A stretch of 64,000 bases of DNA from Candidatus Omnitrophota bacterium (GTDB lineage Bacteria > Omnitrophota > Gorgyraeia > Zapsychrales > Zapsychraceae), in NCBI GenBank assembly GCA_015233495.1, contig JADFXQ010000001.1, positions 2,790 to 66,789 on the forward strand, read 5' to 3'. The notes beneath the pieces were generated by a model that did not search any database, was not told where the DNA came from, and worked only from the letters and a program-made list of their open reading frames with translations. Shown here in pieces: positions 2,412-54,389 of the stretch. Both the position numbers and the translations under genes were made by a program. Each line of letters starts with the position of its first letter. Position 1 is the first letter of the stretch.

Positions 2412-3701
2412 TTATGAATAAAATTTTAAATTGCCGCCGAGTTCACGCAAATCCTCCCAAAATCCCGGATAGGATTTGTTAACACAATCCCGATCCTTGA
2501 TCCGGACGCCCAGCTTGAGTCCCAAAATCGCGAAAGCCATGGCTAAACGATGGTCTTGATGCGGGTCCAAAAGACAGCCTTCCTTATACTGATGCTTCGG
2601 GGTAATGACCAACTCATCTTTTTTTTCACTGATATCCGCCCCGACTTTTAATAATTCTCTTCGTAAATCGCTGATCCGGTCTGATTCTTTTACCCGAGCG
2701 TGGCCAATATGCCGCAAACGGGTAGGGCCGCGGCCAAATAAAGCCAGGACGGTCATGATTGGGACTAAGTCCGGGCAGTCTTGCAAAGAAAACTCGCCGC
2801 CGCTTATCGCAAAGGGGCCTTTGATCCGCAGCGACCGCCCAGTGGACGTAAAGCGCGCCCCCATTTTTTTAAAAAATTCCAAGATGCGTCCATCCGCCTG
2901 AATCCACCGATCCGCAAAATGCCCTTCTAAAATCACGTCGGATTGAGTCAAAGCCGCAGCGGCGAGCAAAAAAGCGGCTAAACCATAATCGGACGGCACA
3001 GCAAATCGTTTCAACCCGCGGAATTTCTGTCCGCCCTTGATCAAAAAATCCCTCGGTCCGTCTTGCGTGATAATCACCCCGGCTTCCGCCAGGACTAAAC
3101 GCGTCATGGTGATGTATTCAAAAGAAACAACTGATTTCCCGGTTAAGGAGAGACGCGTATCTTGCGCTAATTGGGGACAGGTGATCAATAATCCGGAAAT
3201 AAATTGCGAACTTAAAGACGCGTCGCATTTAACGCGGCCTCCAGTTAAAGCGCCTCCCAAAATCCGCACCGGCACGCTTGCTCCCGCGCCCGTGCCTTGA
3301 ATCCGCATCCCCATTGCGGCCAGAGCCCGGATTAAATATAGATTAGGCCTGCCCCGCAGCGTTCCCCGGCCTTCGACAGTCACCGCTTTTCCCCGCAGAC
3401 ACAAAAGCGGCAATAAAAAACGCAGAACCGTTCCGGATTCCTGCACCTGAATCCGGGAAAATTTTTGGGGTATCCGCGGAGCTTGTATCGCCAATTGGTC
3501 AGAGGCTCGACGCTTGATAACCGCGCCTAAACGCTGGGCCACGGCGAGGGCGGCCTGAGCGTCCGCGCAATCCGAGGGGTGCATGATGATGGATGATCCC
3601 CCGCAAGCCGCGACCATAAAAGCGCGAATCGTGTACGATTTTGAGGCGGGAAGAAATATTTTACCGCGCAGGACGGAAGTTTTATTGATCAACGCGGTCA
3701 C
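2412..3701 (-). CDS. aroA: 3-phosphoshikimate 1-carboxyvinyltransferase (EPSP synthase)
   Basis: 429 aa; LPASKSYTIRAF N-terminal motif and DHRLAMAFAILGL C-terminal motif are typical of AroA. Confidence 0.75.
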   Translation of the reverse strand: MTALINKTSVLRGKIFLPASKSYTIRAFMVAACGGSSIIMHPSDCADAQAALAVAQRLGAVIKRRASDQLAIQAPRIPQKFSRIQVQESGTVLRFLLPLLCLRGKAVTVEGRGTLRGRPNLYLIRALAAMGMRIQGTGAGASVPVRILGGALTGGRVKCDASLSSQFISGLLITCPQLAQDTRLSLTGKSVVSFEYITMTRLVLAEAGVIITQDGPRDFLIKGGQKFRGLKRFAVPSDYGLAAFLLAAAALTQSDVILEGHFADRWIQADGRILEFFKKMGARFTSTGRSLRIKGPFAISGGEFSLQDCPDLVPIMTVLALFGRGPTRLRHIGHARVKESDRISDLRRELLKVGADISEKKDELVITPKHQYKEGCLLDPHQDHRLAMAFAILGLKLGVRIKDRDCVNKSYPGFWEDLRELGGNLKFYS

Positions 3702-4555
3702 TTCTTCACCACAACCTGGTCATTCTGCCGCGCCTGACTACTCGACAAGGGCGGAATTAAATCCGCCGCAGACATTTTGGTCTGAACGCGCGTGACCCGG
3801 ATATCACCCAAATATTCCTTACCGCGATATACGGAAAAATCCATGCCCGTGACTACGCCGTCTTTTTGTCCCAAATCAATGATCACAAACTCCGTGTCTT
3901 TATCGACACTGACTATCCGTCCTTCCGGGATATTCGCCGGATTGACAATAATTTTATCCAAATTAACCCGCGGCTTCGCGGTCGTTGCCGCGGGAACGAT
4001 ATTTTCAGCTGGAACGACTCCCTCTACTGGCTGCGGCGCTGCCGCGGCCGCCAATTTTTTTTCCAAATCGCGCGCCTTGGTCTCCGTTTCTTTTAATTTC
4101 AATTCTATTTCACGTTTCGCGCTCTTTTCTTGATCGATTTGCGCATTCAAATCGCGGACCTTTTGCTCTGTATCGGCGATTTGCTTGTCCAACTTATCTT
4201 GCAGAGATTTATTGTTCTGTTTCATACTGCTCAATTCCGCGTTTAACTTATCGCTCTCTTCTTTCAGCTTTTGGTTCACGGCGATTTTTACATCCAGGTC
4301 TTCCCTGACGCCGTTTAAACTGTCATCCGCTTCTTTCAATTTACTTTGCAGAACCTCAATCTGTTTGCGCAAATCACGGCCATCCTCTTCCTGCTTCAAT
4401 TCGCTCGCGTGGCTTTTCAACAATAATTTTTCCGTTAATTTCCGTTTTTCAATTTCTTTTTGCCAAAAAAACAGGCATAAAACCATCATACTTACTAACA
4501 AAATCGCAATGATCGTTAAAAACACGGTCAAAATTTTCCCGGAAGACTTGGCCAT
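3698..4555 (-). CDS. membrane-anchored coiled-coil protein, unknown function
   Basis: N-terminal TM helix, about 170 aa of heptad-rich Glu/Lys/Leu coiled coil, and a small C-terminal beta-rich domain. Confidence 0.55.
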   Translation of the reverse strand: MAKSSGKILTVFLTIIAILLVSMMVLCLFFWQKEIEKRKLTEKLLLKSHASELKQEEDGRDLRKQIEVLQSKLKEADDSLNGVREDLDVKIAVNQKLKEESDKLNAELSSMKQNNKSLQDKLDKQIADTEQKVRDLNAQIDQEKSAKREIELKLKETETKARDLEKKLAAAAAPQPVEGVVPAENIVPAATTAKPRVNLDKIIVNPANIPEGRIVSVDKDTEFVIIDLGQKDGVVTGMDFSVYRGKEYLGDIRVTRVQTKMSAADLIPPLSSSQARQNDQVVVKK

Positions 4556-12271: not shown

Positions 12272-12353
12272 CTTGTGGGTGCCCGTTGTTCTGGCGCGAT
12301 CGCATAACGGGCGCCCACGAGCCTGCCTGCCGAAGGCAGGGGGCGCCCCTACA
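12272..12353. repeat. GC-rich palindromic element, full intergenic copy with an extra inverted arm; its CTAC end supplies the serpin stop codon
   Basis: AACGGGCGCCCACGAGCCTGCCTGCCGAAGGCAGGGGGCGCCCCTACA, preceded by inverted arm CTTGTGGGTGCCCGTT. Confidence 0.7.
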
Positions 12354-13563
12354 TTGCCGACGGGTCATTGACCCGGCCGATGAATAAGATCAACCCGGTT
12401 TTGCGGTCTTGGATGATAAACAGAAATGGATGATCCGCCTGGAATATCTTGGGCGGTACCGACATATGGGTGACAGTTCCTTTCAGCATCATCACCACCG
12501 TTGCCGCGGCCGCTTCCGTTCCTTCTTCATTCACCTCCACAAACGCCTGATGAATCACCGCGGAAATAAACAAATCTTTTTTGCCGGTCATCCCCGAAAA
12601 ATCCGCGTCAACATCGCTAAATGCCGCTTGCATTCCCAGAGAATTCAAATCCTGCCTCATAAAATATTTAGTCCCGAATTTGAACTTAGGCAAATAAATA
12701 ATGACTTTTTCCTGCTGCAATAATTTTTGCCATTCCGCCACCTTGGCCGCGTTCAAAGACGCTTCCACGGATTCCAGAGTTTTTTTCCCCGGCAAAAGAA
12801 TCAGCATGGACAGATCTTCTCCCTGATAAGGCAACTCAAGAATCTGCAGTCCGTCTGCCTCCGCGTAGGATTTGTTCTCGGACAAATACATGGTCGGGAC
12901 TTTAACTGTTTTTTGATCGCCGGTCCTAAAATTCGCTTTCCGAGTATGCTGGGCGTCAAACGGCGTCCGCCAAGACCCTTTAAAATATACGACATTAGTA
13001 AGAATCAATTTTGTATCCGCGCCGATCATTCCCGACGGGATCAATTCCTCGATTTTATGATTCGTCCGCTCCTCTACCCACAGATTAATCGTCTGCCGCG
13101 ATTCCTCCGACCGAATCCGGAAATCCAAATTCGTCGCCTTCCCGCCGTAATATTTCTCGATCAGACTAAAATATTCTTCCAAAAACGGATAACCCTCCTG
13201 CGCCCACAAGGCATTCGCGGTATTCAGCGTGTATTTTTTGTCTGCCTTATTGATCTCCTGATAAATCGCCAAATACGCCTCCCGCCGGGCCGCCGCGTCC
13301 GAAGGAAAATGAAACACCTTTTCCATCTCCGCCGCCGTCTGCCCCCGGCCGCCTTCATACGTCATGGCCAAAGCCGAAGAAATGCTGTAAGGCGAATAAA
13401 AAATATTCCCCGGTAGGGACTTATACCGCGCATAAAGCTCAAACGCGAACTGATTGTTCGCCGCGACCACAGCGCTGACATCCGCCGCGCCGGCCGGGAT
13501 AGGCGCCAAGAATACTGCAATGAGTAATAAAACAACCAACGGCAAAAAAATCCTTTTTATCAT
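12349..13563 (-). CDS. serpin-family serine protease inhibitor, secreted
   Basis: Signal peptide; FYSPYSISSALAM, NAVYFKGSW and reactive-centre-loop-like GTEAAAATVV..PKIFQADHPFLF motifs. Confidence 0.8.
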   Translation of the reverse strand: MIKRIFLPLVVLLLIAVFLAPIPAGAADVSAVVAANNQFAFELYARYKSLPGNIFYSPYSISSALAMTYEGGRGQTAAEMEKVFHFPSDAAARREAYLAIYQEINKADKKYTLNTANALWAQEGYPFLEEYFSLIEKYYGGKATNLDFRIRSEESRQTINLWVEERTNHKIEELIPSGMIGADTKLILTNVVYFKGSWRTPFDAQHTRKANFRTGDQKTVKVPTMYLSENKSYAEADGLQILELPYQGEDLSMLILLPGKKTLESVEASLNAAKVAEWQKLLQQEKVIIYLPKFKFGTKYFMRQDLNSLGMQAAFSDVDADFSGMTGKKDLFISAVIHQAFVEVNEEGTEAAAATVVMMLKGTVTHMSVPPKIFQADHPFLFIIQDRKTGLILFIGRVNDPSAM

Positions 13564-13790
13564 GATTTGCCCTTTCGTTGAGTTTCTTTCTTTAAATACG
13601 CCGCGCCCTTTTTCGTAAGACGGTATTTCTGCATACGGCTATTTGCTTTTGCCGGGATGGTATATTCAATCCATCCGGCTTTTAAAGCCGGATGCAAATA
13701 ATTATCACGAAACGTCGGCCGATGCCTCAATTCCAGCGCTGTCCGGATCTCTCCGGAAGATAATTCCCTGTTTCTCAATAAGTCGAGCAT
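13560..13790 (-). CDS. winged-helix domain protein (fragment resembling Fic/RecG-associated C-terminal wHTH); likely a gene remnant
   Basis: 76-aa ORF with a KYRLTKKG-type wHTH tail; no upstream continuation. Confidence 0.3.
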   Translation of the reverse strand: MLDLLRNRELSSGEIRTALELRHRPTFRDNYLHPALKAGWIEYTIPAKANSRMQKYRLTKKGAAYLKKETQRKGKS

Positions 13791-13962: not shown

Positions 13963-14030
13963 ACGCCGACGGATCACTGACCCGGCCGATGAATAAAATC
14001 AACCCGGTTTTTCATCTTGAATGATCCTCC
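13963..14030 (-). pseudogene. degraded fragment of a second serpin gene (3' end only)
   Basis: About 85% DNA identity to 12355-12420, the 3' end of the intact serpin gene, with no ORF around it. Confidence 0.5.
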
Positions 14031-14300
14031 GTAATTTGGTCGCTGAATGGGTCGTTTACTGCCTTTCATCTCTGACGGCGCATTCTATGCTCGATTTTAT
14101 ACAACACGTCCAATTTTTCCACAACCGATTTTCTTTGCATGACAATGGTCTTGATGAATCAGACTCCCCTCGTAAAGATACAATTTTTTTATTCATAAGT
14201 CCCCTTTAATTGTATAGGAAAATCTCTTCGATAAAAATCTATTTCCCAACCCAGGCTTGTGTTATACTTCTAATAGAGAATGCTTATTGGAGATCTTATT

Positions 14301-14519
14301 ATGAAACCCATGGAAATCATATTTCTTGTTGAGCAAGACCCGGAAGGCGGCTTCACAGCCAAGGCCCTTGAATATTCCATTTTTACCCAAGGCGAAACGC
14401 TTGAGGAATTAAAAACAAACATCAAAGATGCCCTTCTTTGTCATTTTGATTCTAAAGACGGCATTCCGGCATTGATTCGTTTACATATTGTCCGCGAAGA
14501 AACCCTGATTTATGCCTAA
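14301..14519 (+). CDS. hicB: HicB-family antitoxin (UPF0150 fold)
   Basis: Short HicB-like N-domain (FLVEQDPEGGFTAKALEYSIFTQGETLEELKTNIKDAL); GGAG Shine-Dalgarno; overlaps hicA by 8 nt. Confidence 0.6.
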   Translation: MKPMEIIFLVEQDPEGGFTAKALEYSIFTQGETLEELKTNIKDALLCHFDSKDGIPALIRLHIVREETLIYA

Positions 14520-14757
14520 AATCCCTCGCGATCTATCCGGTCAAGATCTCGTTAAAGCCTTGCGATCATTCGATTACAAAATTGCTCGACAATCGGGGAG
14601 CCACATTCGCTTGGTTTCTCAATATAAAGGCAACGAACACGCCATCACGATCCCGGATCATTCCTCCATCAAAATCGGAACACTCAACAATATTCTCAAT
14701 GACATCGCTGTATATTTATGCATAAGCAAAGACTCTCTCATCGAAAAATTATTTTAA
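14512..14757 (+). CDS. hicA: HicA-family mRNA interferase toxin
   Basis: GSHIRL...HAITIPDH..IKIGTLNNIL matches the HicA (YcfA-like) pattern. Confidence 0.65.
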   Translation: MPKIPRDLSGQDLVKALRSFDYKIARQSGSHIRLVSQYKGNEHAITIPDHSSIKIGTLNNILNDIAVYLCISKDSLIEKLF

Positions 14758-16357: not shown

Positions 16358-19249
16358 TTATCGTTGATCTTCCACAAACGGCACATCGGGGTTACAGATT
16401 TCCTGCCAGACACTGTCTAATCCAGCCAAGCAGGCCGCTTGCATGGCTTGCTGTTCTTCCGGAGTGCTGCCATTTTTGAATCTTTCCAACTTCATGGTCT
16501 TGAGGCTATAGAGCCCGCCCTGGACTCGAGCTTCCGGATAAATTTTTTTCATGCAGTATGTATATAAAGGAAGCTGGAAGGATTTGACGCGGTCGCGGAT
16601 ATTTTCGCGGGTCATTTCCATGCCGGCAATGCGCTGTACTCCTTGCGGGACTTTGTCCGTGCTCCCGGTTTTGTAATCAATGACTAAAATACTGCCGTCA
16701 TTGAGCCGGTCAACCCGGTCAACCACATAACGGAATTTCATCTCGCCGGACGGCAACACAATGCGGTCTTCAAAATGCTTTTCCAAACCGAGGATTTCCT
16801 TCACCTCGCCGTTAACGCGGCCGGCTTCGGATTCATAAAATTGTTCCAGCCGGTGTTCCAGAACCGGACGCATGAGAAACCCGTCAGACAAATTGTTTTT
16901 TCCGAACCGCGCCGTGAATTTCTGCTCAAAGATCGAAAACAACCGCTTATGAAACCCGGCATTGATTTCCGGCTGGCGTCCGATCAACGGCCCAAACGTC
17001 TCCTCCAACACCGCGTGCAATAAAATCCCGATGTCGCGGCCCTCCGGCTCGTCCAACAAATCGTCCCGTTCCCGCAAACCCAAAACATAATTGAGATAAA
17101 AATCCATCGGGTTATCCAAATACATATTCAAAGCGGACACGGAATACGGCATATCCCGCAAAAAATCAACCATGGCCGGAGTCTTGGCGATTTGCCGCGT
17201 CCCTGCCGTGACCTTGACGGCAAAAGACGCGTGCCGCGCTTTTACGCATTCAATCTCCCCGGCCTTGCGCTCCTGTTCCCAGATCAGCTCCTCGACAAAC
17301 CGGCTGCGCTCTTTCTCTTTATTTTCCTCATAAATAAGATGCACCGCCCGCGCCGGCCCGATCAGCCGCATGAATTGATACCGCTGGATTTCTTCGTCGA
17401 GCTCAAGCCGGTCGAGCCCCAAGCTGATCATCACTTCGCGCGGAATCAGCGGCTGATGCACTTGCAAACGCGGCAGTTTGCCTTCATTCACATCCAAAAT
17501 GATAACCTGATCAAAATTCAACGAGCGGGTCTCCAGCAAACCCAAAATCTGCAAGCCCTTAAGCGGCGACCCGGAAAACGAGACCATTTCCCGGCTGATG
17601 TTCTCAGTAAAAATTCGGAAAATATCTTCCGGCAAAAAACGCTCCTTGCCGAATCCGGACTCCCGCATATCCTGCGCCATGTCCAACAACCGCGAAGCAA
17701 TATTCACATTAAAAGGAAACGAGACCAAAGCGCTTTTCTCCGCCACCAGACGGGACAAATTCTCCAAAGCGTCCGCGAAAGAACAAAAATCCCCGATCTG
17801 CTCCCACGCCCGGAAAAATATCTGATGCATCCGCTTGAGCGCCTGACCCAAAGCTTCCCGCGACACTGTCGGGTCCACGGCCCCGGCCGCCTCCCGGCTG
17901 ATCGACAAGACATCCTCGTCCTGCTCAATCTCGTCGAGATTCAAAAACAATTTGCCGGACAGACCCGTGACCGTATCGCCCGACAAAATTTCCTCGATCT
18001 TATGGACTAAAATCCGGGTCACCGCCGGATCTTTAAACCAGCAAATATTTTTCACCAAAGGATGGCGCAAGACCCGCAAATAATCCCGGGCATAATACCC
18101 CTCCGACCAAATTGCATCAGCGGTGTTACTAAATGATTGTTTGTCGTAGGGGCGCCCAAGCTGCCGGCAGGCAGGCGAGAGGGCGCCCATACGTTCGCCC
18201 GTTATCCTATCTGACCGAGACAATTGGCACCGAAAAATATCATCCAGCAGAACACACAAACTGCTGCGGTTTAACGGATATCCCAATGATACATTGCAAT
18301 CCTCTACCCAGGGCCGCAGGTCCGCCAGCAAAGGCACAACCGCGTCGGAATCCGGCAAGACAATCACGGTTTGATCGCGCCGGTCAATGGTCTTGAGAAT
18401 TTCTCCGGCCTGCGCCGCTTGGCTGTGGCGGCTCGTGACAGAATACAATTGAAGTTGAAAATGCAGAGGAACCGGCTGATCGCCTTCGCGCAAAGCGCAT
18501 CCCAACCGCCGGCTGATCCGCTCCAAAACCGGCCATTTGCGCTCATCGCCTTGAAAGATCAAAACCGCCTTGCCCCGGTCGAGGAGATTTTTGACAATCG
18601 CTTCTTCCGTGCGGTGAAAATAAAAAAAGTTGCAAAACAAAATGGCGTCAAATTCCTCCAAAGCCGCGGAGCCGACTTTTTGGGCTGCTTCGCGATAACG
18701 GAATCCCCGGGCCGTCATACCCGACGATCGCAATGCCTCATGATAGGCCAGCCGCAATTTAGACAAATACGTTAACAGCTGATTGATGCCCTGCGGCACG
18801 TCATAACCGATGCGCGCGTTCGCCTCGACTGCCGAAAGACGGCGGTTGTCAATATCCTCCAAATCCAATTGCTCAATAAACGCCAAAATCTCCCGCGCCC
18901 ACGGCAAAAAATCCGCAAAGGTTTTTCGTTTCTCCAAAATCTCCGGCGCGACAGTCAGGGCCAACTGATAAATCAAATAACACTGATCCAAATCGCCCGC
19001 GCCCGGCCGGGCGGCGTCTTGGGCAAGCCGGTCAACCAACTCATCAATCGTGAACATGACCGGCGGGAAAAACCCCTGCCCGATCCGCTTAGCCAAAGCC
19101 CGGCTCAAAAACAAACGCGGCCGCTTCCCGCCAAACACCACAGCCACCCGCCGCAAATCCTTGCCCGGCTGAATAAAATTAACATCCAAATATTCAGCCA
19201 GCCGGTCGATAAACGGCTCTGCGAAATTAAAAGTGATTATTTTTTGCAT
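16358..19249 (-). CDS. AddB/RexB-like helicase-nuclease subunit (PD-(D/E)XK nuclease, no Walker A)
   Basis: 963 aa; C-terminal ILVIDYKTGS nuclease motif; lies in tandem with the AddA-like gene. Confidence 0.65.
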   Translation of the reverse strand: MQKIITFNFAEPFIDRLAEYLDVNFIQPGKDLRRVAVVFGGKRPRLFLSRALAKRIGQGFFPPVMFTIDELVDRLAQDAARPGAGDLDQCYLIYQLALTVAPEILEKRKTFADFLPWAREILAFIEQLDLEDIDNRRLSAVEANARIGYDVPQGINQLLTYLSKLRLAYHEALRSSGMTARGFRYREAAQKVGSAALEEFDAILFCNFFYFHRTEEAIVKNLLDRGKAVLIFQGDERKWPVLERISRRLGCALREGDQPVPLHFQLQLYSVTSRHSQAAQAGEILKTIDRRDQTVIVLPDSDAVVPLLADLRPWVEDCNVSLGYPLNRSSLCVLLDDIFRCQLSRSDRITGERMGALSPACRQLGRPYDKQSFSNTADAIWSEGYYARDYLRVLRHPLVKNICWFKDPAVTRILVHKIEEILSGDTVTGLSGKLFLNLDEIEQDEDVLSISREAAGAVDPTVSREALGQALKRMHQIFFRAWEQIGDFCSFADALENLSRLVAEKSALVSFPFNVNIASRLLDMAQDMRESGFGKERFLPEDIFRIFTENISREMVSFSGSPLKGLQILGLLETRSLNFDQVIILDVNEGKLPRLQVHQPLIPREVMISLGLDRLELDEEIQRYQFMRLIGPARAVHLIYEENKEKERSRFVEELIWEQERKAGEIECVKARHASFAVKVTAGTRQIAKTPAMVDFLRDMPYSVSALNMYLDNPMDFYLNYVLGLRERDDLLDEPEGRDIGILLHAVLEETFGPLIGRQPEINAGFHKRLFSIFEQKFTARFGKNNLSDGFLMRPVLEHRLEQFYESEAGRVNGEVKEILGLEKHFEDRIVLPSGEMKFRYVVDRVDRLNDGSILVIDYKTGSTDKVPQGVQRIAGMEMTRENIRDRVKSFQLPLYTYCMKKIYPEARVQGGLYSLKTMKLERFKNGSTPEEQQAMQAACLAGLDSVWQEICNPDVPFVEDQR
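18144..18208. repeat. GC-rich palindromic element inserted in-frame in the addB-like gene (encodes ITGERMGALSPACRQLGRPYD)
   Basis: GTAGGGGCGCCCAAGCTGCCGGCAGGCAGGCGAGAGGGCGCCCATACG is the inverted orientation of the intergenic copy at 12307. Confidence 0.7.
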
Positions 19250-36039: not shown

Positions 36040-36290
36040 TCCCCTGCGCTATTCCGTACTCAAAGCCAGCTTGGGGAACAGCTGATTCGGCGGATACCCC
36101 GTAACGCCCCGCAAATAAATCTTCTCAACCCCGGCGCGGAAAATCGATCCCACATTATACCCCAAACATATGTCATTCAGAACTAAAACTAAAGGCAAGA
36201 CTTGCACAGGGGAATTTTGTTGCTGCCGGAAAACTAATTACAGATGAGTCAATTTTCGCATGCGGCATTAGTCTTCGGGAAGGCGAACGT
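36040..36290 (-). pseudogene. disrupted duplicate of the 5' end and upstream region of the trmH-like gene (reads MRKLTHL*)
   Basis: About 80% DNA identity to 37950-38200, with an early stop and frame breaks. Confidence 0.6.
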
Positions 36291-36905: not shown

Positions 36906-37625
36906 TTATTCCTCCCCTCTCACCGCCGCCAAAAACAATTCTTCCAAATTTTTCTTTCCCGCCCGCGCCAGCAAATCCGACTGCTTTCCATCCGCGATAA
37001 TCTCCCCCTTTTGAATAATCAAAACCCGCGGCGCGACCTGTTCAATCTCGGATAAAATATGCGTACTAAGCAAAACCGTGCGCTCGCTTCCCTGCTGTTT
37101 TATCAAATCCCGCACCTGCAAAATCTGTACCGGGTCCAGCCCATTGGTTGGCTCGTCGAGAATCAAGACCGGCGGTTCATTTATCACCGCCTGAGCCAGC
37201 CCGACTCTTTGTTTAAAACCTTTTGATAGCGCGGCAATCAGCCGGTCGCGTACCGCGCGCAAAGAACAAGCAGCGATCACCTTATCAACTTGCATCTTCT
37301 GCTTTCGAGCCGGAACATCCTTCAGCCTCGCCGCGAAATAAAGATATTGTCCCACTGTCAGCGCCGGATAAAGCGGCGGATTTTCCGGCAAATACCCGAT
37401 TTTCCTGCGGACATCCAACGGCCGGCGCAAGGCGTCCATCTGTGCCACAAACACCTCTCCCGAAGCCGGCCGCAAAAAAGTGGTTAAAATCCGCATTAAA
37501 GTGGTTTTGCCCGCGCCGTTACAGCCCAGAAATCCGACAATCTCGCCCTTGCCAATGGCCAGGTCCACATCAGCCAGCGCGCGCTGTTTCCCATAGAAAT
37601 GATTTAATTTAGAAACCCTGATCAT
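36906..37625 (-). CDS. ABC transporter ATP-binding protein (GldA-like)
   Basis: Walker A GCNGAGKTT, signature LSKGFKQR, Walker B ILDEPT. Confidence 0.8.
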   Translation of the reverse strand: MIRVSKLNHFYGKQRALADVDLAIGKGEIVGFLGCNGAGKTTLMRILTTFLRPASGEVFVAQMDALRRPLDVRRKIGYLPENPPLYPALTVGQYLYFAARLKDVPARKQKMQVDKVIAACSLRAVRDRLIAALSKGFKQRVGLAQAVINEPPVLILDEPTNGLDPVQILQVRDLIKQQGSERTVLLSTHILSEIEQVAPRVLIIQKGEIIADGKQSDLLARAGKKNLEELFLAAVRGEE

Positions 37626-38170
37626 ATTTTTGCTGTAATCCCGGACAACCGTTTTTGCAATTCATTCCTGATATGATAAGCGGCTATCCCCGCCGCGACC
37701 GCCACATTCAAGGAATTCTTCAATCCCGCCATTTCAATCTCAATGGCCTGATCGCAATCCGCGAGAATCGTTTCGCTCACCCCGGAAATTTCATTGCCGA
37801 CGACCAAACACACCGGCCGCTTGGGATGATAATCCTGATACAACACACTCGATTCCATTTGCTCCAAGAGGACAATCTCATACCCCTCCTGCCGCAAACG
37901 CCGCACCACAACCCGCACATCCCGCTCGTGTTCCCAGGGGACGCGCTGTTCTGCGCCCAAAGCCGTCTTGGAAATCAGCTGATTCGGTGGATACCCCGTT
38001 ATCCCGCAGAGAAAAATCTTCGCGACTCCCGCGCCGTCCGCGGTGCGGAAAATCGAACCTACATTATACCCGGAGCGGATGTCATTGAGAACAAAAACAA
38101 ACGGCAAAACCGAAGCCCCGTTTTTTTGCTCCTGACGAAAAACTAATTCCTGATGAGATAATTTGCGCAT
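37622..38170 (-). CDS. SpoU/TrmH-family RNA 2'-O-methyltransferase
   Basis: NVGSIFRTADGAG and VGNEISGVS / NSLNVAVAAGI SPOUT motifs. Confidence 0.7.
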   Translation of the reverse strand: MRKLSHQELVFRQEQKNGASVLPFVFVLNDIRSGYNVGSIFRTADGAGVAKIFLCGITGYPPNQLISKTALGAEQRVPWEHERDVRVVVRRLRQEGYEIVLLEQMESSVLYQDYHPKRPVCLVVGNEISGVSETILADCDQAIEIEMAGLKNSLNVAVAAGIAAYHIRNELQKRLSGITAKI

Positions 38171-38245
38171 GGGCGTATTATAGCAAAAAAAAGGCGCTCC
38201 GAAATTAAAGAGCGCCTTTTTATTCTCCAGCAAACCTATTAGGGT

Positions 38246-44799: not shown

Positions 44800-44975
44800 A
44801 TTGCTGGATCAGAAGCAGAAAACTAATCAGCCAAACTAATATTTTCGATCTTGAGCCGATCCAGGATCTGCGTAAAGTTAAATAAGTCCTCATAATATAA
44901 GTATAAAATATAAATCGACGGAAAATAAGGGCGGGACCGGGGGGTTGGGAAAGCGTTTTCTTTATGGCAGCACTA
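44800..44975 (-). pseudogene. duplicate of the giant-gene promoter plus first 31 codons (MRTYLTLRRSWIGSRSKILVWLISFLLLIQQ*), upstream of lacI
   Basis: About 85-90% DNA identity to 54167-54320. Confidence 0.6.
44949..44960. promoter_or_regulatory. LacI-type operator-like half-palindrome GAAAGCGTTTTC (AANCGNTT core)
   Basis: Sequence motif; a counterpart, GAAAAAACGCTTTC, is present at 54304-54317. Confidence 0.3.
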
Positions 44976-45063: not shown

Positions 45064-45234
45064 ATGAATTCCAAAACAACCCAAGCGCTCAAACATTTGC
45101 ATAAAGCGCGGGAACTGGCGAAAAACTTAGATAATCCGTTCAAAGGTCTCACCAAAGAAGGAATCATTAACCAATTACGCGCTTCCCGGGAAAAACTCTG
45201 GTTGGAAAAGTATGCGGTTAGTTCTCGACACTAA
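45064..45234 (+). CDS. putative antitoxin (VapB-like)
   Basis: Small basic/helical protein with a TAGGAG Shine-Dalgarno, overlapping the downstream PIN gene. Confidence 0.45.
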   Translation: MNSKTTQALKHLHKARELAKNLDNPFKGLTKEGIINQLRASREKLWLEKYAVSSRH

Positions 45235-45619
45235 TGTCTTCATCTTCGCGTTCGGCGAAGCCGAAAATGTATCTTGCGTGAGACTGATTGAAACTTTGAC
45301 AGTCCTCAAGGCATCCATTCATATTCCCCGCACAATTATCCGCGAAGTCCAAAATAGCCTGCGCCCTATATTGTTCAAAGAATTCATTCTCTTTCTGAAT
45401 AAAGCGGCGCATATCGAAGAAGATCACGTTGTCTCTTTTGAGCTCGGCATGAAATACGAAGCTATGGGACTAAAACCCGCCGATGCTTTTATCGGCTCAT
45501 TTACGGAATGGGTTGGCGCGGAAATTCTCGTGTCGGAAAACCGCCATTTTCTTTCCCGGCAATCCAATTTGCCGTTTAAAGTCTTAACGGCTGAAAAATG
45601 CCTCAAATTTTTTAAATAA
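45212..45619 (+). CDS. vapC: PIN-domain toxin (VapC family)
   Basis: LVLDTNVFIFAF N-terminal acidic motif and further conserved Asp residues. Confidence 0.7.
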   Translation: MRLVLDTNVFIFAFGEAENVSCVRLIETLTVLKASIHIPRTIIREVQNSLRPILFKEFILFLNKAAHIEEDHVVSFELGMKYEAMGLKPADAFIGSFTEWVGAEILVSENRHFLSRQSNLPFKVLTAEKCLKFFK

Positions 45620-45688: not shown

Positions 45689-48600
45689 TTATTCCGAATG
45701 CAGCATCACCAGCATCTCCCGCATCTCAGGATCAGTGGGGGATTGTTCGTCTTCTTCAAGGCGCAGGATGTCCGCGATACAGCCCAAGACCGCCGGGCGT
45801 TCTTTTTTCAACCGGCCGTTTTGATATGACGCGGCCACATAATTTGCAATCCGCCGGATCGCGGGGATGCCCCCTTCCGCCAACATGGCCTGGATGGCAG
45901 CCCACTCGTCTCGAGAATTAAAATCCGCGGGCAGCTTAGCCGCCATTTTTCGCCACCCGTATAGAGAATTGGTTCCTTTCTCAAAGGGGGACAACTCCCG
46001 CAAGTCAACGCCGCCGGGATTCTCCGCGGATTCCGCCGGGGCCGGCGAACTTTGGCGCCGGGTTGCGCCTAATTGCGTTGTTACCGGCGAACCGGCCGCG
46101 TCAGCCCGCGCCGGGTCTATTCCCGAATCTTCACCCTCCAGAACAAACCAGTTGCATGCAACCCATTTCATCATTTGAGCGAACGGGCCGACCGGTTGGT
46201 GGGTAAAACCGCTTTTGGAATCCGTTGACACAAAACCCCGGCGCAACTGCTCCCGGACATCCAGGTTCGTCCTGACCGACTCTTCCAATAAATGCGCTAA
46301 TTCATGAATAATAACATCCGTAGCTTGACAAATCACGCCCGGACCAGCAACCCCAATTTGTCCCGCCAAAGCACGGTTCAGAAACATTGTCGGCTTTTCC
46401 TGGCCTTTGGGGCCATAATACCCGAACGCGCCCGCGAACCGCAGTGACTCATCAGGTAAATCACTCAACAACACAACCTGCTCTATGCCGAAATGCCTCG
46501 CCCCGGATAAAGCCAAATCCCGCAATTCCTTTTCCCGATCAGTATAGGCGCTGGTATTGATCATAAATTTTTCAGGATGAGAAATTTGTTCAATACCGGT
46601 TGTCACATCAATTGACTTGCTGACCATCTCATCAAAATCCGCTATATCTTCGGCCTGCGGTACGGCTTCCAAAATATATCCGGCTTGCTCTGCCGCGCGT
46701 TGCAGCGCTTTGGATGCTTTTCCCAAAAATGACGGCCGCTGCTTTTCCCGTTCTATTTGCAACTTCATACGCCGTCCAAATAAACTGATTGTTTTCCCGG
46801 GCCTATCCGGATTCGGCACATTTAACATTAAAATCAATTTAACAAAGTTCGGAACCACAAGGTCTTTTTCCCCATACTGCGCCGGCAGAGATTCTAATTC
46901 CTCAGAGCTAATCAAGGAAAATTGACCGGCATTGATCTTGTTCGCCAACGCGCTGATGGCCCGATCGTGTTGATCAATGGCTAACGAATAATGTTCTCTC
47001 GGCTCTCTTTCCCATTCGACAGGAAAACCCTCAAAAGTAAATTGACCCTGCTCTGCCGTGGCTGGCATCATTGTCCGCAAAGCCAAAGCCTTATAAAATT
47101 CGATTGCCACATATCTCTGAACTATGGATTTATAATGTTCGTCAAAATGCGCGAACTTGTCGCGATTGCCGGTCAGCGGCAACGGGACCTGCACGATCAA
47201 CCCCAGTTGTTGAATATGCTTGCGTAAGGCCGGCGGGACGAGCGCGAAATACTGGGCTTCATCCAACTCGCATACCCGGCGGCCAAATTTGTCTACGACC
47301 TGCGACGGCATATCCCTAGCGCTAATGATTTTAAATTTGCCGTCAAACGTATGGGTTTGCGACGCGATAAGAAAATCCCAAGCCTGGGGAAATTCTTTCT
47401 CCAATGTCCGCCGGATAGCTTGCTCCGCTTGGTCCCAACCCTCCCGCAGGGTGATCTCATTGTCGCCAACCCGATACGCCCACCCGCGCTCCACCATGAT
47501 CCCCGCAAACCTGGACCACTCCCAACTGCGGGGCGCCCACCCGGCCCACCAACGGCGCGGTCGAGGCAATTGCGTCTCAAATTCCTGCCGGGTGATCGGC
47601 TTGCCTCCGGCAAGTATGGCCTTAAAATCGGTTTCACTTAAAACCTGATGATCCACAGTCAGCAGTTCATTGTGAGTCTCGCCGTCGATACCGCGCCGGA
47701 AATATATCCCAAATCCGCCGCTGGTTCGCGGCCCATCCGCAGTGGAAGAAAGTCCGGAAAATATCTTATACGCGCGCTCGGACAGCATCGCGTCAAATTC
47801 CGGGATCGTGTCTTTCGCTTTTTTGATCCGCCGAATCAAAACCCCATCCTGCACATTGGGGTCGCTAATCTTCCGGATCCGGGTGAGCTTCACGTGAAGC
47901 GGGTTGCCAAACGCGTCTTTGGAAACTTGGATCACAAACATATAACCCGTCCCTTGCCGGCAGGTAATGATTTCCACGCGGTCCACCCCGGCCAAAAAAG
48001 TATATTTCCCTTTCCCAAAAAAACCGGCAGAATGTTCTTGCTCATCCGCTTCTTTAGTCGACACCTTGATCAACAACGCTGCCGCGTAAGCCGCGCCGGG
48101 TCCGTCGTCCTGGAAAGCCTCCACATATTCTTCTTCGCCGTTATTGTCCTGCAAATAATGGTCAATGACCAAGGTTTTCGCGCCCGCGTCCTGGGCGTTG
48201 GCCGGACCTTCGCGAGCGGCCGCGTCAGCTTCTCCCTGTACCTTGACATCGAACAGCACATCCTTTTCAGATTGGGGATCGGTTTCCGGCAAAGACACCG
48301 CAGGGTCCTGAATCGCGGCTATCAAATCGTCCATCGCAATAACCGGCTGGCCGTTCTTGGGCCGGCGTCGTTCCAAATCGTTCAATCGGGAAAGGTCAAT
48401 TCCCTGCGGATAATGCCCAGTGCCGTCCGCCAACAAAACGTCTTCGCCATTCGGCAAAACCGGTTGCCCGCGATGCGGCAATTCATCGATCTCTTGAGTC
48501 AAAAAAGCCACGACCGGACGCGCGTATCCCATGTCATGGCCGGCCAGCGGATCATCCGCGTAGGCCAACAAGAGCCGGATGCCAACAGTCTGGAAACTCG

Positions 48601-51600
48601 AACATAATTTTTTCAGAAAATTGACTTTGCTTTGCTCTTCCGCTGTGAGGATCCGGCTGATTTGCTTGGTCATGATCGGGATATGATGAACCGGATCATT
48701 GCCGGCAAACCGGGCCAAGAACGCCACCGCATCTAAAAGCCCAGACGTGTTGATTCCCGTAAACGTAGTAAGCGCTCTGATCAATTGAATCACCGCTTCC
48801 AGAGCCCGGACTTGTTCAACAGTGTCCATTTGCCAGCCGCCGCCTAAAGCGAGTACCGCTTCCAAAGATAAATCCGTCGCGGCATCCTCGTCCAGAGCCA
48901 TTTGAAATAAACTGCCAAACAATTGCGTATAAAAAGCTCGCCGCGTTTTATGGACATTGGGTAAACGTTCGGCAACTGTTTCCAGATAACCCGGCAAACC
49001 GGACATGATCCGGGCCATCCGCCGCTCAAATAACTCAAACGGCAGTCCGGTCAAATCTAATTCCTGCCCTTGTGCCGCCGCGGCAAAACGCCGCCGGATT
49101 TCCGCGGTCTGCTTTGCAAACAACCGGTCAATCCCCGCTTCGATCCGTCCGTTGATTTCATCTTGATAATCCGCGCACTCCTCGGGAACCAAGGCCGCGA
49201 ACCCCAAATAAGCCGCTCTGGCCTGAGCAATCCAGGCTTCACCCTGACTCATAATTTTTTCCTGCCACAAAGCATCTTCGCGGCGCTCCGGCTCTACTGG
49301 AGCAGCTGCCGGCAGCTCAATTGGGACCTCAGACACCGCTCTTATTCTCTCCGATAAGTTCGCATAAAACGCTCTTATAATTTCCTCGTAAATAGCCGTC
49401 GGCGGCGCCAACGCCGAAGTTCGAACCCGGGTGCGCCGCGGGTCCAAATAAATACTCTGGCCCGTGCTCGCGTTGGTGAAAACAAAATACTCCCCGTTCA
49501 CATGCACATAAGCAAAAGCGTCGGGTACACCCTGGGGAATTTCCCGAACGTTTCCTTGCGCGTCGAATATTGCGAGTCTACCCTGTAAAATAAATTCGCG
49601 GCTCTTTGTTATCGTAATAGAAAGCGATGATAAGTTTACGCTATGGAATTTTTGGGTTCCCTCATCCCAAACCACCAACATCGAATCATCTTTCCGGTCA
49701 ACCCACCAACTCTTGCCGCCTTTTAAAGGTAAGATCTCCGTGGTTATACCGCAATCAAATTGTTCTTCCTCTACCTCGCTTTTTAAATTTCGGAATAATG
49801 TGTCACCCTGCACATTGCCAATATTCCGCCAAACAGCCACATTACCGAACAATTCCACAGTTGTACGGTCCTGTTTCGTCGGCGGATTGGAACTATAATG
49901 TATCCTTGTCCCCATAATCATGAATAAGCCGAACCTATCCGCAATTTGGTATATGTTGCTCCCCGAAATATCATACCCTTGCCAGAATTCCGGGCTGGCT
50001 TGGCCGGACGGAAACTCCGGAATTGATTGTTCATTATACAATTGCCTTAGGACAAGTGTGTTTTTATTCCTTAGAAACGTCAACATTTCATTTTTGTCGC
50101 GGCCTTCGAAAACTACATAAACAAATCCCGCATCATTACTGATAAAAATTTTTTCTTTGAAATCTGGCATCCTGGTTGTAACCGGTTCTCCTGACTTTAA
50201 ATTGATCAAACCTAATTTATTCCCTATTTTATAAATCGCAATCATGCCGCTGGCGTCGATCTCAATATGCTCCGCGTTCCAAATCAGCGGTTTACCCGAT
50301 TCCAAGGAAAAAAGGCCATAGGTATTATTCCTTTGCTTGGCAATGACCACATCCGCTTTGTCGTGAACAACGTATTCACTGATCTCCCTGAATGACGTGA
50401 ACCCAGTCAGCTGGGGAAGCGCGGCGTCATGATCGCAATATTTGATCTCATTTTTAAACCGCTGGACGGAAAACCGCCCGGAAGCGGACAGTTGAATGTC
50501 CCAGGCGCGCTTCCGCGCAGACCTGGTCGTAGGTAAATTTCGAATATCTATGATCTCTTTCCCGCCCGCCTGATCAACATATTCCACAATCAAAAACCGA
50601 TCCGTATGCGACACCATATAGCAATCGTGCACCGTCCAGAGCAGTTCACCCGCGGGATTATAGATATCAACCTTTCGAGAAAATATTCTCATGAAATAGT
50701 TGTCTTCCATTCTAATGAATCGTGCTATTCCTATCTCAATATGGTCTTCTGCTGGAGCGTCTGACGGTTTACTGAACAAAAATATAGAATCCGCTGGCGC
50801 GGCCTGTGACCCTTCAGCAAACGGCGCCACAACCGTTTGGGAAGGTCCCGGAACAAAAGCAGTTGCCGGAGGGCGGCTTAAATCTTCCCGAAACCTCTGC
50901 TCTGCGGCGGCGCCTATGCTGCCTGCGTTGGAAACAGCCGGCCAAGCCGGTTTCGCCGGCGCGGCCGTCGGGGCGTCGATAACATTCGCTTCCGCGAATC
51001 CCGGCCGCATTTCATATCCCGTGACAAGGGCCTCCCCCGTCATCTTATTGATCTGCTCCCACATATGCGCCAATTCTTTGCGTTCCTGCGCATTCAGACC
51101 CGTTGATTTTTTCGCCAACTCAAACAACCTTTGCCCAAAAGAATTGCGCCCCTTGCCTGAGGGCACAGCCACAAAATCTTTGGCACGGACCAGCGCCAAA
51201 TCCCGGTCAACTTGTTCGCTGGATACCGCCTTTCCGTTTACCGCAGCCAAACTTTCCGCGGTGAACGGCAAAACCACCACTGACAACTCGCCTTTCAACA
51301 GCTTATCCGGGATCACCTGGCCGCCCAATTGACTCGCGATAAACGTGGCAGTGCTGTCAAACAAATCTTCATGCAGCCAAATCACTTTGTCTTCTTTTCC
51401 CTTCGGAATTTGCACCTTGCGAAAATCCGTATAATACGGCAAAAGCAGATATCCCTGCGCTTGATATTCTTTTAACCAAGGCTTAAGCGCTTTCTTGATC
51501 TCCATCTTTATTTGATCGATGACATTAGCATGCTTGCCGTTTTCACCAATCAATCCATCCAAACCGCAAACCAGCATATTGATGTACCGGATCTTATCCG

Positions 51601-54250: not shown

Positions 54251-54303
54251 ACTATAAGTATAGAATATAAATCGACGGAAAATAAGGGCGGAACCGGGTT
54301 TTC

Positions 54304-54317
54304 GAAAAAACGCTTTC
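54304..54317. promoter_or_regulatory. LacI-type operator-like site GAAAAAACGCTTTC about 55 bp upstream of the giant gene
   Basis: AANCGNTT core; duplicated at 44949. Confidence 0.3.
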
Positions 54318-54389
54318 TTGCTCGCGACTAAATTTCATATAACTATAATTTAGTCTTGACTAAAATAACCTTAGGTATAATATAGTCGT

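Follow-up and report, generated by a model that had tools for sequence, protein, structure and literature searches.

A short palindromic repeat that interrupts the gene of an AddB-like nuclease was analyzed in a stretch of 64,000 nucleotides (nt), hereafter the window, on a contig of 187,318 bp (JADFXQ010000001.1) from a metagenome-assembled genome (MAG) of Candidatus Omnitrophica/Omnitrophota. The repeat is present in three copies in the 64 kb, and it is probably a short, GC-rich, non-autonomous element of the repetitive extragenic palindromic (REP) class, which was inserted in frame into genes and is tolerated there in protein loops. The copy in the AddB-like gene, c18 (18146-18211, - strand; bounds from the comparison with the other copies), comprises 66 nt and contributes 22 codons (D347-Y368), which encode the peptide DRITGERMGALSPACRQLGRPY. 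The presence of an in-frame palindromic element in this intact gene, which had been claimed in an earlier annotation of the DNA (the original prediction), is borne out by the three-copy family with no chance matches expected and by the AddB fold of the protein. The location given there, 18144-18208, is at most 3 nt off at each end. A second in-frame copy, c22 (22946-22995, + strand), which the original prediction did not contain, lies in the adjacent AddA/UvrD-like gene on the - strand and encodes VRGGAPCHGRQDSGRPSS; its head has degenerated to GTGG. The third copy, c12 (12298-12352, + strand), is essentially extragenic and is located directly 3' of a serpin gene.

The three copies share the consensus GGGCGCCC-N5-CCTGCCTGCC-N7-8-GGGCGCCC. 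Scanning the window with the pattern GGGCGCCC-N(4-12)-CTGCC-N(0-30)-GGGCGCCC resulted in three matches, at 12309-12348 (+), 18150-18188 (-) and 22951-22989 (+), compared with 0.00 in 100 dinucleotide-preserving shuffles. An nhmmer profile made from the three copies recovered just these three in the window, with E-values of 4e-16 to 1e-13. When aligned, the copies have a common layout consisting of the tail GAT.G.ATAAC, GGGCGCCC, 5 nt, CCTGCCTGCCG, 7-8 nt that close the inner stem, GGGCGCCC and CTAC. Read on the opposite strand, the element opens with the tag GTAG (c12 and c18) or GTGG (c22), the stem follows directly, and the short tail reads GTTAT(S)C.ATC. At the tag and the adjoining stem, the sequence is cGTAGGGGCGCCC in c18 and, as reverse complements, tGTAGGGGCGCCC in c12 and cGTGGGGGCGCCC in c22.

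The outer stem consists of 8 bp formed by the self-complementary GGGCGCCC/GGGCGCCC, and an asymmetric, one-sided bulge of 5 nt separates it from an inner stem-loop of 6-7 bp (CCTGCC(T)...GGCAGG). Folding of all three copies as single-stranded DNA, on both strands, resulted in energies of -17 to -20 kcal/mol (z = -2.3 to -3.9). The whole element measures ∼55-66 nt and its core 43-47 nt, and the GC content of the core is 0.79 vs 0.49 for the window. In c18, positions 18145-18193 of the + strand read cGTAGGGGCGCCC-aagctgccggcaggcaggcgaga-GGGCGCCCATACg, in which the arms of the palindrome (18145-18157 and 18181-18193) have 13 nt each and are 92% complementary; the complete + strand arrangement is GTAG-GGGCGCCC-[inner hairpin]-GGGCGCCC-ATACGTTCGCCC-GTTATCCTATC. 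Compared with c12 and c22, c18 alone carries an extra segment of 12 nt between stem and tail, and the extended inverted termini of 13 nt are found in c18 and not in c12 or c22. No direct repeat of at least 5 nt, as would indicate a target-site duplication, was observed at the junctions of any of the three copies. The similarity of the flanks of c12 and c18 beyond the element was not significant (p = 0.17), and therefore the boundaries of the element were kept at roughly GAT.G.ATAAC ... CTAC. A search of the window with Rfam identified two tRNAs and no match at the element. Translated in six frames, the core is free of stop codons in four, the closed frames being those that read the TAG of GTAG and the TAA of ATAAC, and both intragenic copies (c18 and c22) contribute a multiple of 3 nt.

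Within 11 kb the repeat family is found in three states: as an in-frame part of the AddB-like gene, as a reversed in-frame part of the AddA-like gene, and as non-coding DNA at the 3' end of a gene. Relative to transcription, the orientation of the intragenic copy c22 is opposite to that of the intragenic c18. The third copy abuts the stop codon of the serpin gene (12349-13563, - strand), and the TAG of this stop codon (12349-12351) doubles as the TAG of the GTAG tag of c12. Since the genes for AddB and AddA read the repeat in differing orientations and frames and it remains untranslated after the serpin, the conserved unit is the DNA and not the peptide.

A paralogous remnant of a serpin 3' end of ∼65 nt (13965-14030, 94% identical to 12356-12402) is located upstream of the intact serpin gene. 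It ends in ...DPSA-TAG without the repeat, and since its last letters are again ...GCG TAG, a GTAG accompanies the stop codon independently of the repeat. The remnant was considered as an empty site and rejected, because the DNA downstream of it is unrelated. Beside it, at 13560-13790, a 76-residue open reading frame (ORF) contains only a Fic-like C-terminal domain, and the region of the remnant and this ORF resembles decayed duplicated genes.

The gene that carries c18 (16358-19249, - strand) encodes an intact AddB-like PD-(D/E)XK nuclease family protein of 963 amino acids (aa; MBF0531482.1), in which the residues of the nuclease motif are present. As had been stated in the original prediction, the 963-aa ORF crosses the palindrome as ...SRSDRITGERMGALSPACRQLGRPYDKQ... 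/ ...LSRSDRITGERMGALSPACRQLGRPYDKQSFSNTADAIWSEGYYARDYL... with neither a stop codon nor a frameshift. Pfam PDDEXK_1 matches residues 702-960, and D844, D858 and K860 of the nuclease motif are among the alignment-invariant columns. Searching with a sequence profile of the family yielded no match among PDB chains, and therefore the assignment to AddB rests on fold comparison. Foldseek with the model of the protein returned as top matches the AddB chains 4cej_B and 3u4q_B of Bacillus subtilis AddAB (E = 5e-24 to 1e-23, TM ∼0.5, 13% identity), and together with the Pfam match this agrees with an AddB-type fold, in which an inactivated SF1 helicase-like N-terminal region is joined to a C-terminal nuclease of the RecB-family PD-(D/E)XK type.

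The nearest orthologs of the AddB-like protein are 49-51% identical to it. In an alignment of 34 sequences, an insertion of 35 aa (residues 346-380; 18110-18214, - strand) is absent from 31 of the 33 orthologs, and in an alignment of 120 sequences it falls in columns that are filled by <15% of the sequences. Two orthologs, P0017 and P0115, have unrelated inserts at this site. The original prediction had expected an indel of roughly 20 residues; the indel itself was recovered, but its size was underestimated, as 22 of the 35 residues are coded by the element and ∼13, encoded by AT-rich codons, have another origin. The latter (DKQSFSNTADAI..., 18110-18145, GC 0.36) are not common to the other copies. 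Descent of these residues from an ancestral loop that P0045 or P0105 would have in common with the protein was considered and rejected, since the KxxF..ADA resemblance is too weak and the insert of P0105 lies in a different loop. Orthologs without the repeat do not conserve the inserted residues, an outcome on which the original prediction had staked its claim of an insertion. In the AlphaFold2 model (mean predicted local distance difference test score, pLDDT, of 81), residues 351-382 are the sole long segment below 50 (pLDDT 35-41) and are flanked by a helix (330-343, ∼93) and by the region from residue 385 (77-93), consistent with the surface loop that had been expected.

The AddA-like protein, a UvrD helicase with a C-terminal nuclease, is encoded at 22620-25808 (- strand) by an ORF of 1062 aa (1058 aa as annotated). 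Here an indel of 14 aa, RGGAPCHGRQDSGR (22953-22994), lies exactly over the element and corresponds to a gap in 33 of 33 orthologs. The Walker A motif, the DExx box and the nuclease motif (D998, K1013) are alignment-invariant; since this applies to the catalytic residues of AddB and AddA alike, both genes look functional. In the AlphaFold2 model (mean pLDDT 78), residues 934-952 score below 50 and form a coil that is bordered by two helices (917-935 and 958-965) and belongs to the C-terminal nuclease region. A flexible loop is thus predicted for each of the two inserts. The two genes are located on the same strand, AddB beside AddA, and are separated by an island of 3.05 kb and a tRNA gene; at the orthologous locus L204 the AddA- and AddB-type genes are 44 nt apart.

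The island between the addA-like and addB-like genes (19558-22645) contains a RhuM-family gene (21659-22444), a DUF6577 gene (20697-21470) and an AbiEii toxin gene (19607-20731). It is flanked by direct repeats of 36 nt (19558-19593 and 22610-22645) that are 94% identical, the second of which covers the last 8 codons of addA. The tRNA gene (19336-19408, + strand) lies beside the island, and no integrase was seen within the island.

The family is best described as GTAG-tagged REPs and not as a Rickettsia palindromic element (RPE), because a GTAG/GTGG tag abuts a GC-rich stem, the element is small and without target-site duplication, and one copy is located at the 3' end of a gene. All three copies are short imperfect palindromes that fold as single strands, and in each of them GTAG or a documented degenerate form of it is found beside the stem. 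GTAG REPs occur in the Planctomycetes-Verrucomicrobia-Chlamydiae (PVC) superphylum, and degeneration of GTAG to GTGG is documented for GTAG-20 of Opitutus terrae (Di Nocera et al., 2013, BMC Genomics 14:522; PMC3733652). Like the GTAG REPs of O. terrae, the element studied here is a GC-rich imperfect palindrome with GTAG at one end and GTGG in some copies, and like that species the Omnitrophota host belongs to the PVC superphylum. It also shares with GTAG REPs the lack of target-site duplications, and its three dispersed copies in 64 kb, one of them within a few nt of a gene 3' end, may be a small sample of the dispersed, multi-copy occurrence of such repeats. Many in-frame REPs have been catalogued, mostly from O. 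terrae and R. conorii, and the supplementary table of intragenic REPs contains ∼70 mentions of O. terrae; many of the proteins decorated in this way are UvrD/Rep helicases, recBCD proteins, UvrA and polymerases (PMC3733652). In O. terrae the in-frame copies add ∼8-30 residues, notably in genes for UvrD/Rep helicases and recBCD-type repair proteins, and the same is observed here. That such insertions are rare outside Rickettsia, as had been assumed in the original prediction, is overstated in view of this catalogue. GGGCGCCC was not found in the text supplementary files of the catalogue (PMC3733652). No report of a REP family in Omnitrophota was found in the literature searched.

GTAG-tagged REPs are thought to be mobilized by RayT (RAYT) tyrosine transposases. 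The element might accordingly spread as single-stranded hairpin DNA, by means of a RayT transposase, an IS200-like enzyme of the HUH/Y1 type, that would be encoded at another place in the genome and act in trans, and selection would remove all intragenic insertions except those that are in frame, free of stop codons and in permissive loops. The mobilization by RayT, taken by itself, could about equally well be right or wrong. The lack of target-site duplications is as expected for elements of the HUH/Y1 type. With the catalytic motifs of both host proteins preserved, tolerance is the simplest explanation of the inserts.

Metagenomes were scanned with the 12-nt head and the stem of the element, GTAGGGGCGCCC-N(18-30)-GGGCGCCC, which resulted in at least 120 loci. 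Those listed lie on contigs with 37-72% GC and include many simple GTAG-GGGCGCCC-loop-GGGCGCCC hairpins as well as dimers, arrays and long symmetric hairpins; the inner hairpin of the window element was present in none of them. Three of the listed loci hold ORFs with a Y1_Tnp domain (PF01797) that contain or abut the repeats. In L144 (28.1 bits) the repeats are located just downstream of the ORF, and in L193 (659-1318, 28 bits) they form an in-frame part of the gene that separates the HUH motif from the half with the catalytic tyrosine. The same layout is found in L103 (10040-10657), which scores 17.9 bits and thereby falls under the Pfam cut-off. A database search with the RayT-like proteins of L193 and L103 revealed a very large family, named 'REP element-mobilizing transposase RayT' by the Joint Genome Institute (JGI). 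An AHVGAPLRGRP-type peptide is present in the linker between HUH motif and tyrosine in 52 of the best 120 homologs (P0241-P0360), a ranking that is biased by the presence of the motif in the query. The GTAG-GGGCGCCC palindrome translates into this peptide, which in the RayT-like linkers is often followed by tandem ERGRPxx units. 'GAPLRGRP' was not found in the literature searched, nor was a paper describing a palindrome in the RayT linker. The head and stem of the window element are in this way circumstantially tied to RayT-type enzymes. An independent case of an in-frame palindrome was identified at L189, on a contig with 43% GC, where GTAG-GGGCGCCC...GGGCGCCC (2982-3022) lies in frame in a Cu-oxidase_4/PgeF gene (ORF 2715-3359, Pfam E = 1.9e-38; peptide ...SVGAPSAMNCGGGRP...).

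Several observations weigh against the explanation as a tolerated repeat of the REP class. Unlike the GTAG REPs of the literature, which are single stem-loops of 20-40 nt, the core of the element has 43-47 nt and two nested stems with an asymmetric bulge and is thus longer and more complex. All three window copies are singletons, 4.7-5.8 kb apart, and inverted dimers (REPINs/BIMEs) were not observed in the window. In this small sample the intragenic copies outnumber the extragenic one by two to one, the reverse of the usual extragenic bias. The 64-kb window of the 187-kb contig contained no RayT/Y1 transposase when 30 of its ∼50 ORFs were searched with Pfam and phmmer was run with an approximate sequence of Escherichia coli RayT and later also with the RayT-like proteins of L193 and L103. 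No Omnitrophota were present among the named RayT homologs in the best 120 matches, and since the head motif served to select the metagenome loci, their association with RayT is suggestive and no independent proof. The strict composite pattern gave 0 matches in JGI metagenome contigs, so that relatives with the same inner hairpin are lacking there, and a scan of 185,579 reference genomes with it yielded isolated chance matches only, in GC-rich genomes and none of them from Omnitrophota. The closest AddB orthologs are only ∼50% identical, and the element does not account for 13 of the 35 inserted residues; because of this degree of identity there is no true empty site, and the exact boundaries of the AddB insertion are uncertain. 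Finally, the inserts are most simply seen as near-neutral, tolerated decorations of loops, but this neutrality is a reading of structural models.

Alternatively, the insertions could be adaptive, with REP-type palindromes being preferentially retained in genes for double-strand-break repair (AddAB/RecBCD, UvrD), either because they alter the enzyme, leading for example to a mutator or hyper-recombination phenotype, or because an mRNA hairpin modulates the expression of both subunits. A mutator or hyper-recombination phenotype was speculated on by Di Nocera et al. (PMC3733652). The sole two intragenic copies in ∼60 kb of coding DNA hit one AddAB subunit each, for which random placement gives P ∼0.005; this value was computed post hoc and has n = 2. 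AddA orthologs from two other Omnitrophota also contain GC-rich, partly palindromic in-frame inserts, which differ from those described here. In P0172 they are found at aa 559 and aa 929 (L204:2865-2963 and 3975-4067; GRPLGEPRHSARTSLRA and LPAAIGPPGGRSLWP), and in P0187 at aa 54 (L205:2469-2570; EAARQGRRPLGEPRRSAG). A 17-nt word, TTTGGGCGAGCCTCGCC, is common to L204 and L205, where its positions in the protein are not homologous, and the inserts of the two loci probably belong to another palindromic repeat family. They agree with the enrichment of intragenic REPs in repair genes that is found in the literature (PMC3733652). However, the positions of the inserts differ, are not conserved and lie in coil of low pLDDT, and no insert is common to orthologs. 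Unrelated inserts occur at the AddB site in P0017, P0045 and P0115, and downstream of the hairpin there is neither a U-tract nor any other sign of regulation. Both subunits are long, have multiple domains and contain several loops prone to indels, which can explain the observations equally well. An adaptive origin is regarded as unlikely. Slightly more doubtful still is the general statement that REP-type palindromes are recurrently and non-randomly fixed in both AddAB subunits across Omnitrophota (and, according to PMC3733652, in recBCD/uvrD elsewhere). If it were true, it would reflect a functional link between RayT-borne hairpin repeats and the end-resection machinery, which could consist in targeting of the genes or in selection for altered recombination. 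The in-frame GTAG-GGGCGCCC palindromes that many RayT-like genes carry in their own linker are a related observation.

The original prediction had taken the in-frame insertion as the hallmark of the Rickettsia palindromic elements (RPE-1 to RPE-10), which Ogata et al. reportedly described in 2000. This label fits the behavior of the element and not its family. Like the RPEs, it is a selfish palindromic repeat that is tolerated in frame in intact housekeeping genes, where it forms a disordered or surface-exposed segment that the fold of the host protein can accommodate; this behavior is shared and does not indicate common descent. Small mobile sequences that carry ORFs, among them intragenic ERIC/IRU, are likewise said to have been described by Delihas in 2007/2008. 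A miniature inverted-repeat transposable element (MITE) similar to the RPEs, with terminal inverted repeats, mobilization by a DDE transposase and a conserved peptide module, would account for the position in an ORF, for the ends of c18, which can be read as inverted termini of 13 nt, and for the hydrophilic, loop-forming peptide. It is largely refuted by the other properties of the repeat and has very little probability left. Classical RPEs are ∼100-150 nt long and restricted to Rickettsia (PMC10969869), whereas the element has 55-66 nt and is found in an Omnitrophota MAG. Each RPE encodes a conserved, family-specific peptide according to the descriptions, whereas the peptide here changes with orientation and frame. 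The tag is GTAG and not the CGTC of the short RPE-4 and RPE-6 (PMC3733652). Terminal inverted repeats together with a target-site duplication, as in MITEs, were not found: the extended termini occur in c18 only, and no duplication was detected at any copy. MITEs of the ERIC/IRU type are moreover longer (∼70-130 nt or more), have terminal inverted repeats and often target-site duplications, and lack a GTAG-tagged short hairpin (reviewed in PMC10969869). Even less credible is the absence of any insertion, with an ancestral or lineage-specific AddB segment that contains a palindrome by chance, or with an artifact of MAG assembly: the orthologs of only ∼50% identity, the missing empty site at the DNA level, the ∼13 of 35 extra residues that are not repeat-derived and the indel-prone loop in other orthologs would allow it, but ∼50 nt of the same DNA are found at three unrelated loci in both orientations where none is expected by chance, the GC content is an outlier (0.79 vs 0.49), the inserts are absent from 119 AddB-like and 119 AddA-like orthologs, and a 50-nt repeat that is shorter than a sequencing read, in two intact ORFs, is not what misassembly would be expected to produce.

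As in-frame REPs and even their occurrence in this class of repair genes have already been described (PMC3733652), the phenomenon is not new and no new mechanism is revealed. New are the sequence family, the composite architecture with two stems and the phylum. With the assignment to GTAG-tagged REPs, the case provides a well-controlled example of selfish palindromic DNA that was turned into protein sequence, and it widens the range of GTAG-type REPs, together with their tendency to decorate genes for break repair, to include the candidate phylum Omnitrophota. For annotation, such repeats account for odd Gly/Ala/Pro/Arg-rich inserts in otherwise conserved proteins.

Some further repeats and genes were observed in the window. 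Direct repeats of 161 nt, 85% identical (44802-44962 and 54159-54319), are located at both ends of a 2853-aa ORF (45689-54250), with one copy overlapping the start of this ORF and the other in a 73-aa ORF downstream. Two adjacent repeats of 75-81% identity (36046-36201 vs 37943-38110) link an apparently non-coding stretch to a SpoU rRNA-methylase gene (37622-38233), and this stretch probably represents a fragment of a paralog that has become a pseudogene. Genes of the toxin-antitoxin type are scattered in the window, at 14280-14757, where a HicA toxin (14512-14757) comes after a 79-aa ORF without a Pfam match, and at 45212-45619, where an ORF with a PIN domain is located.

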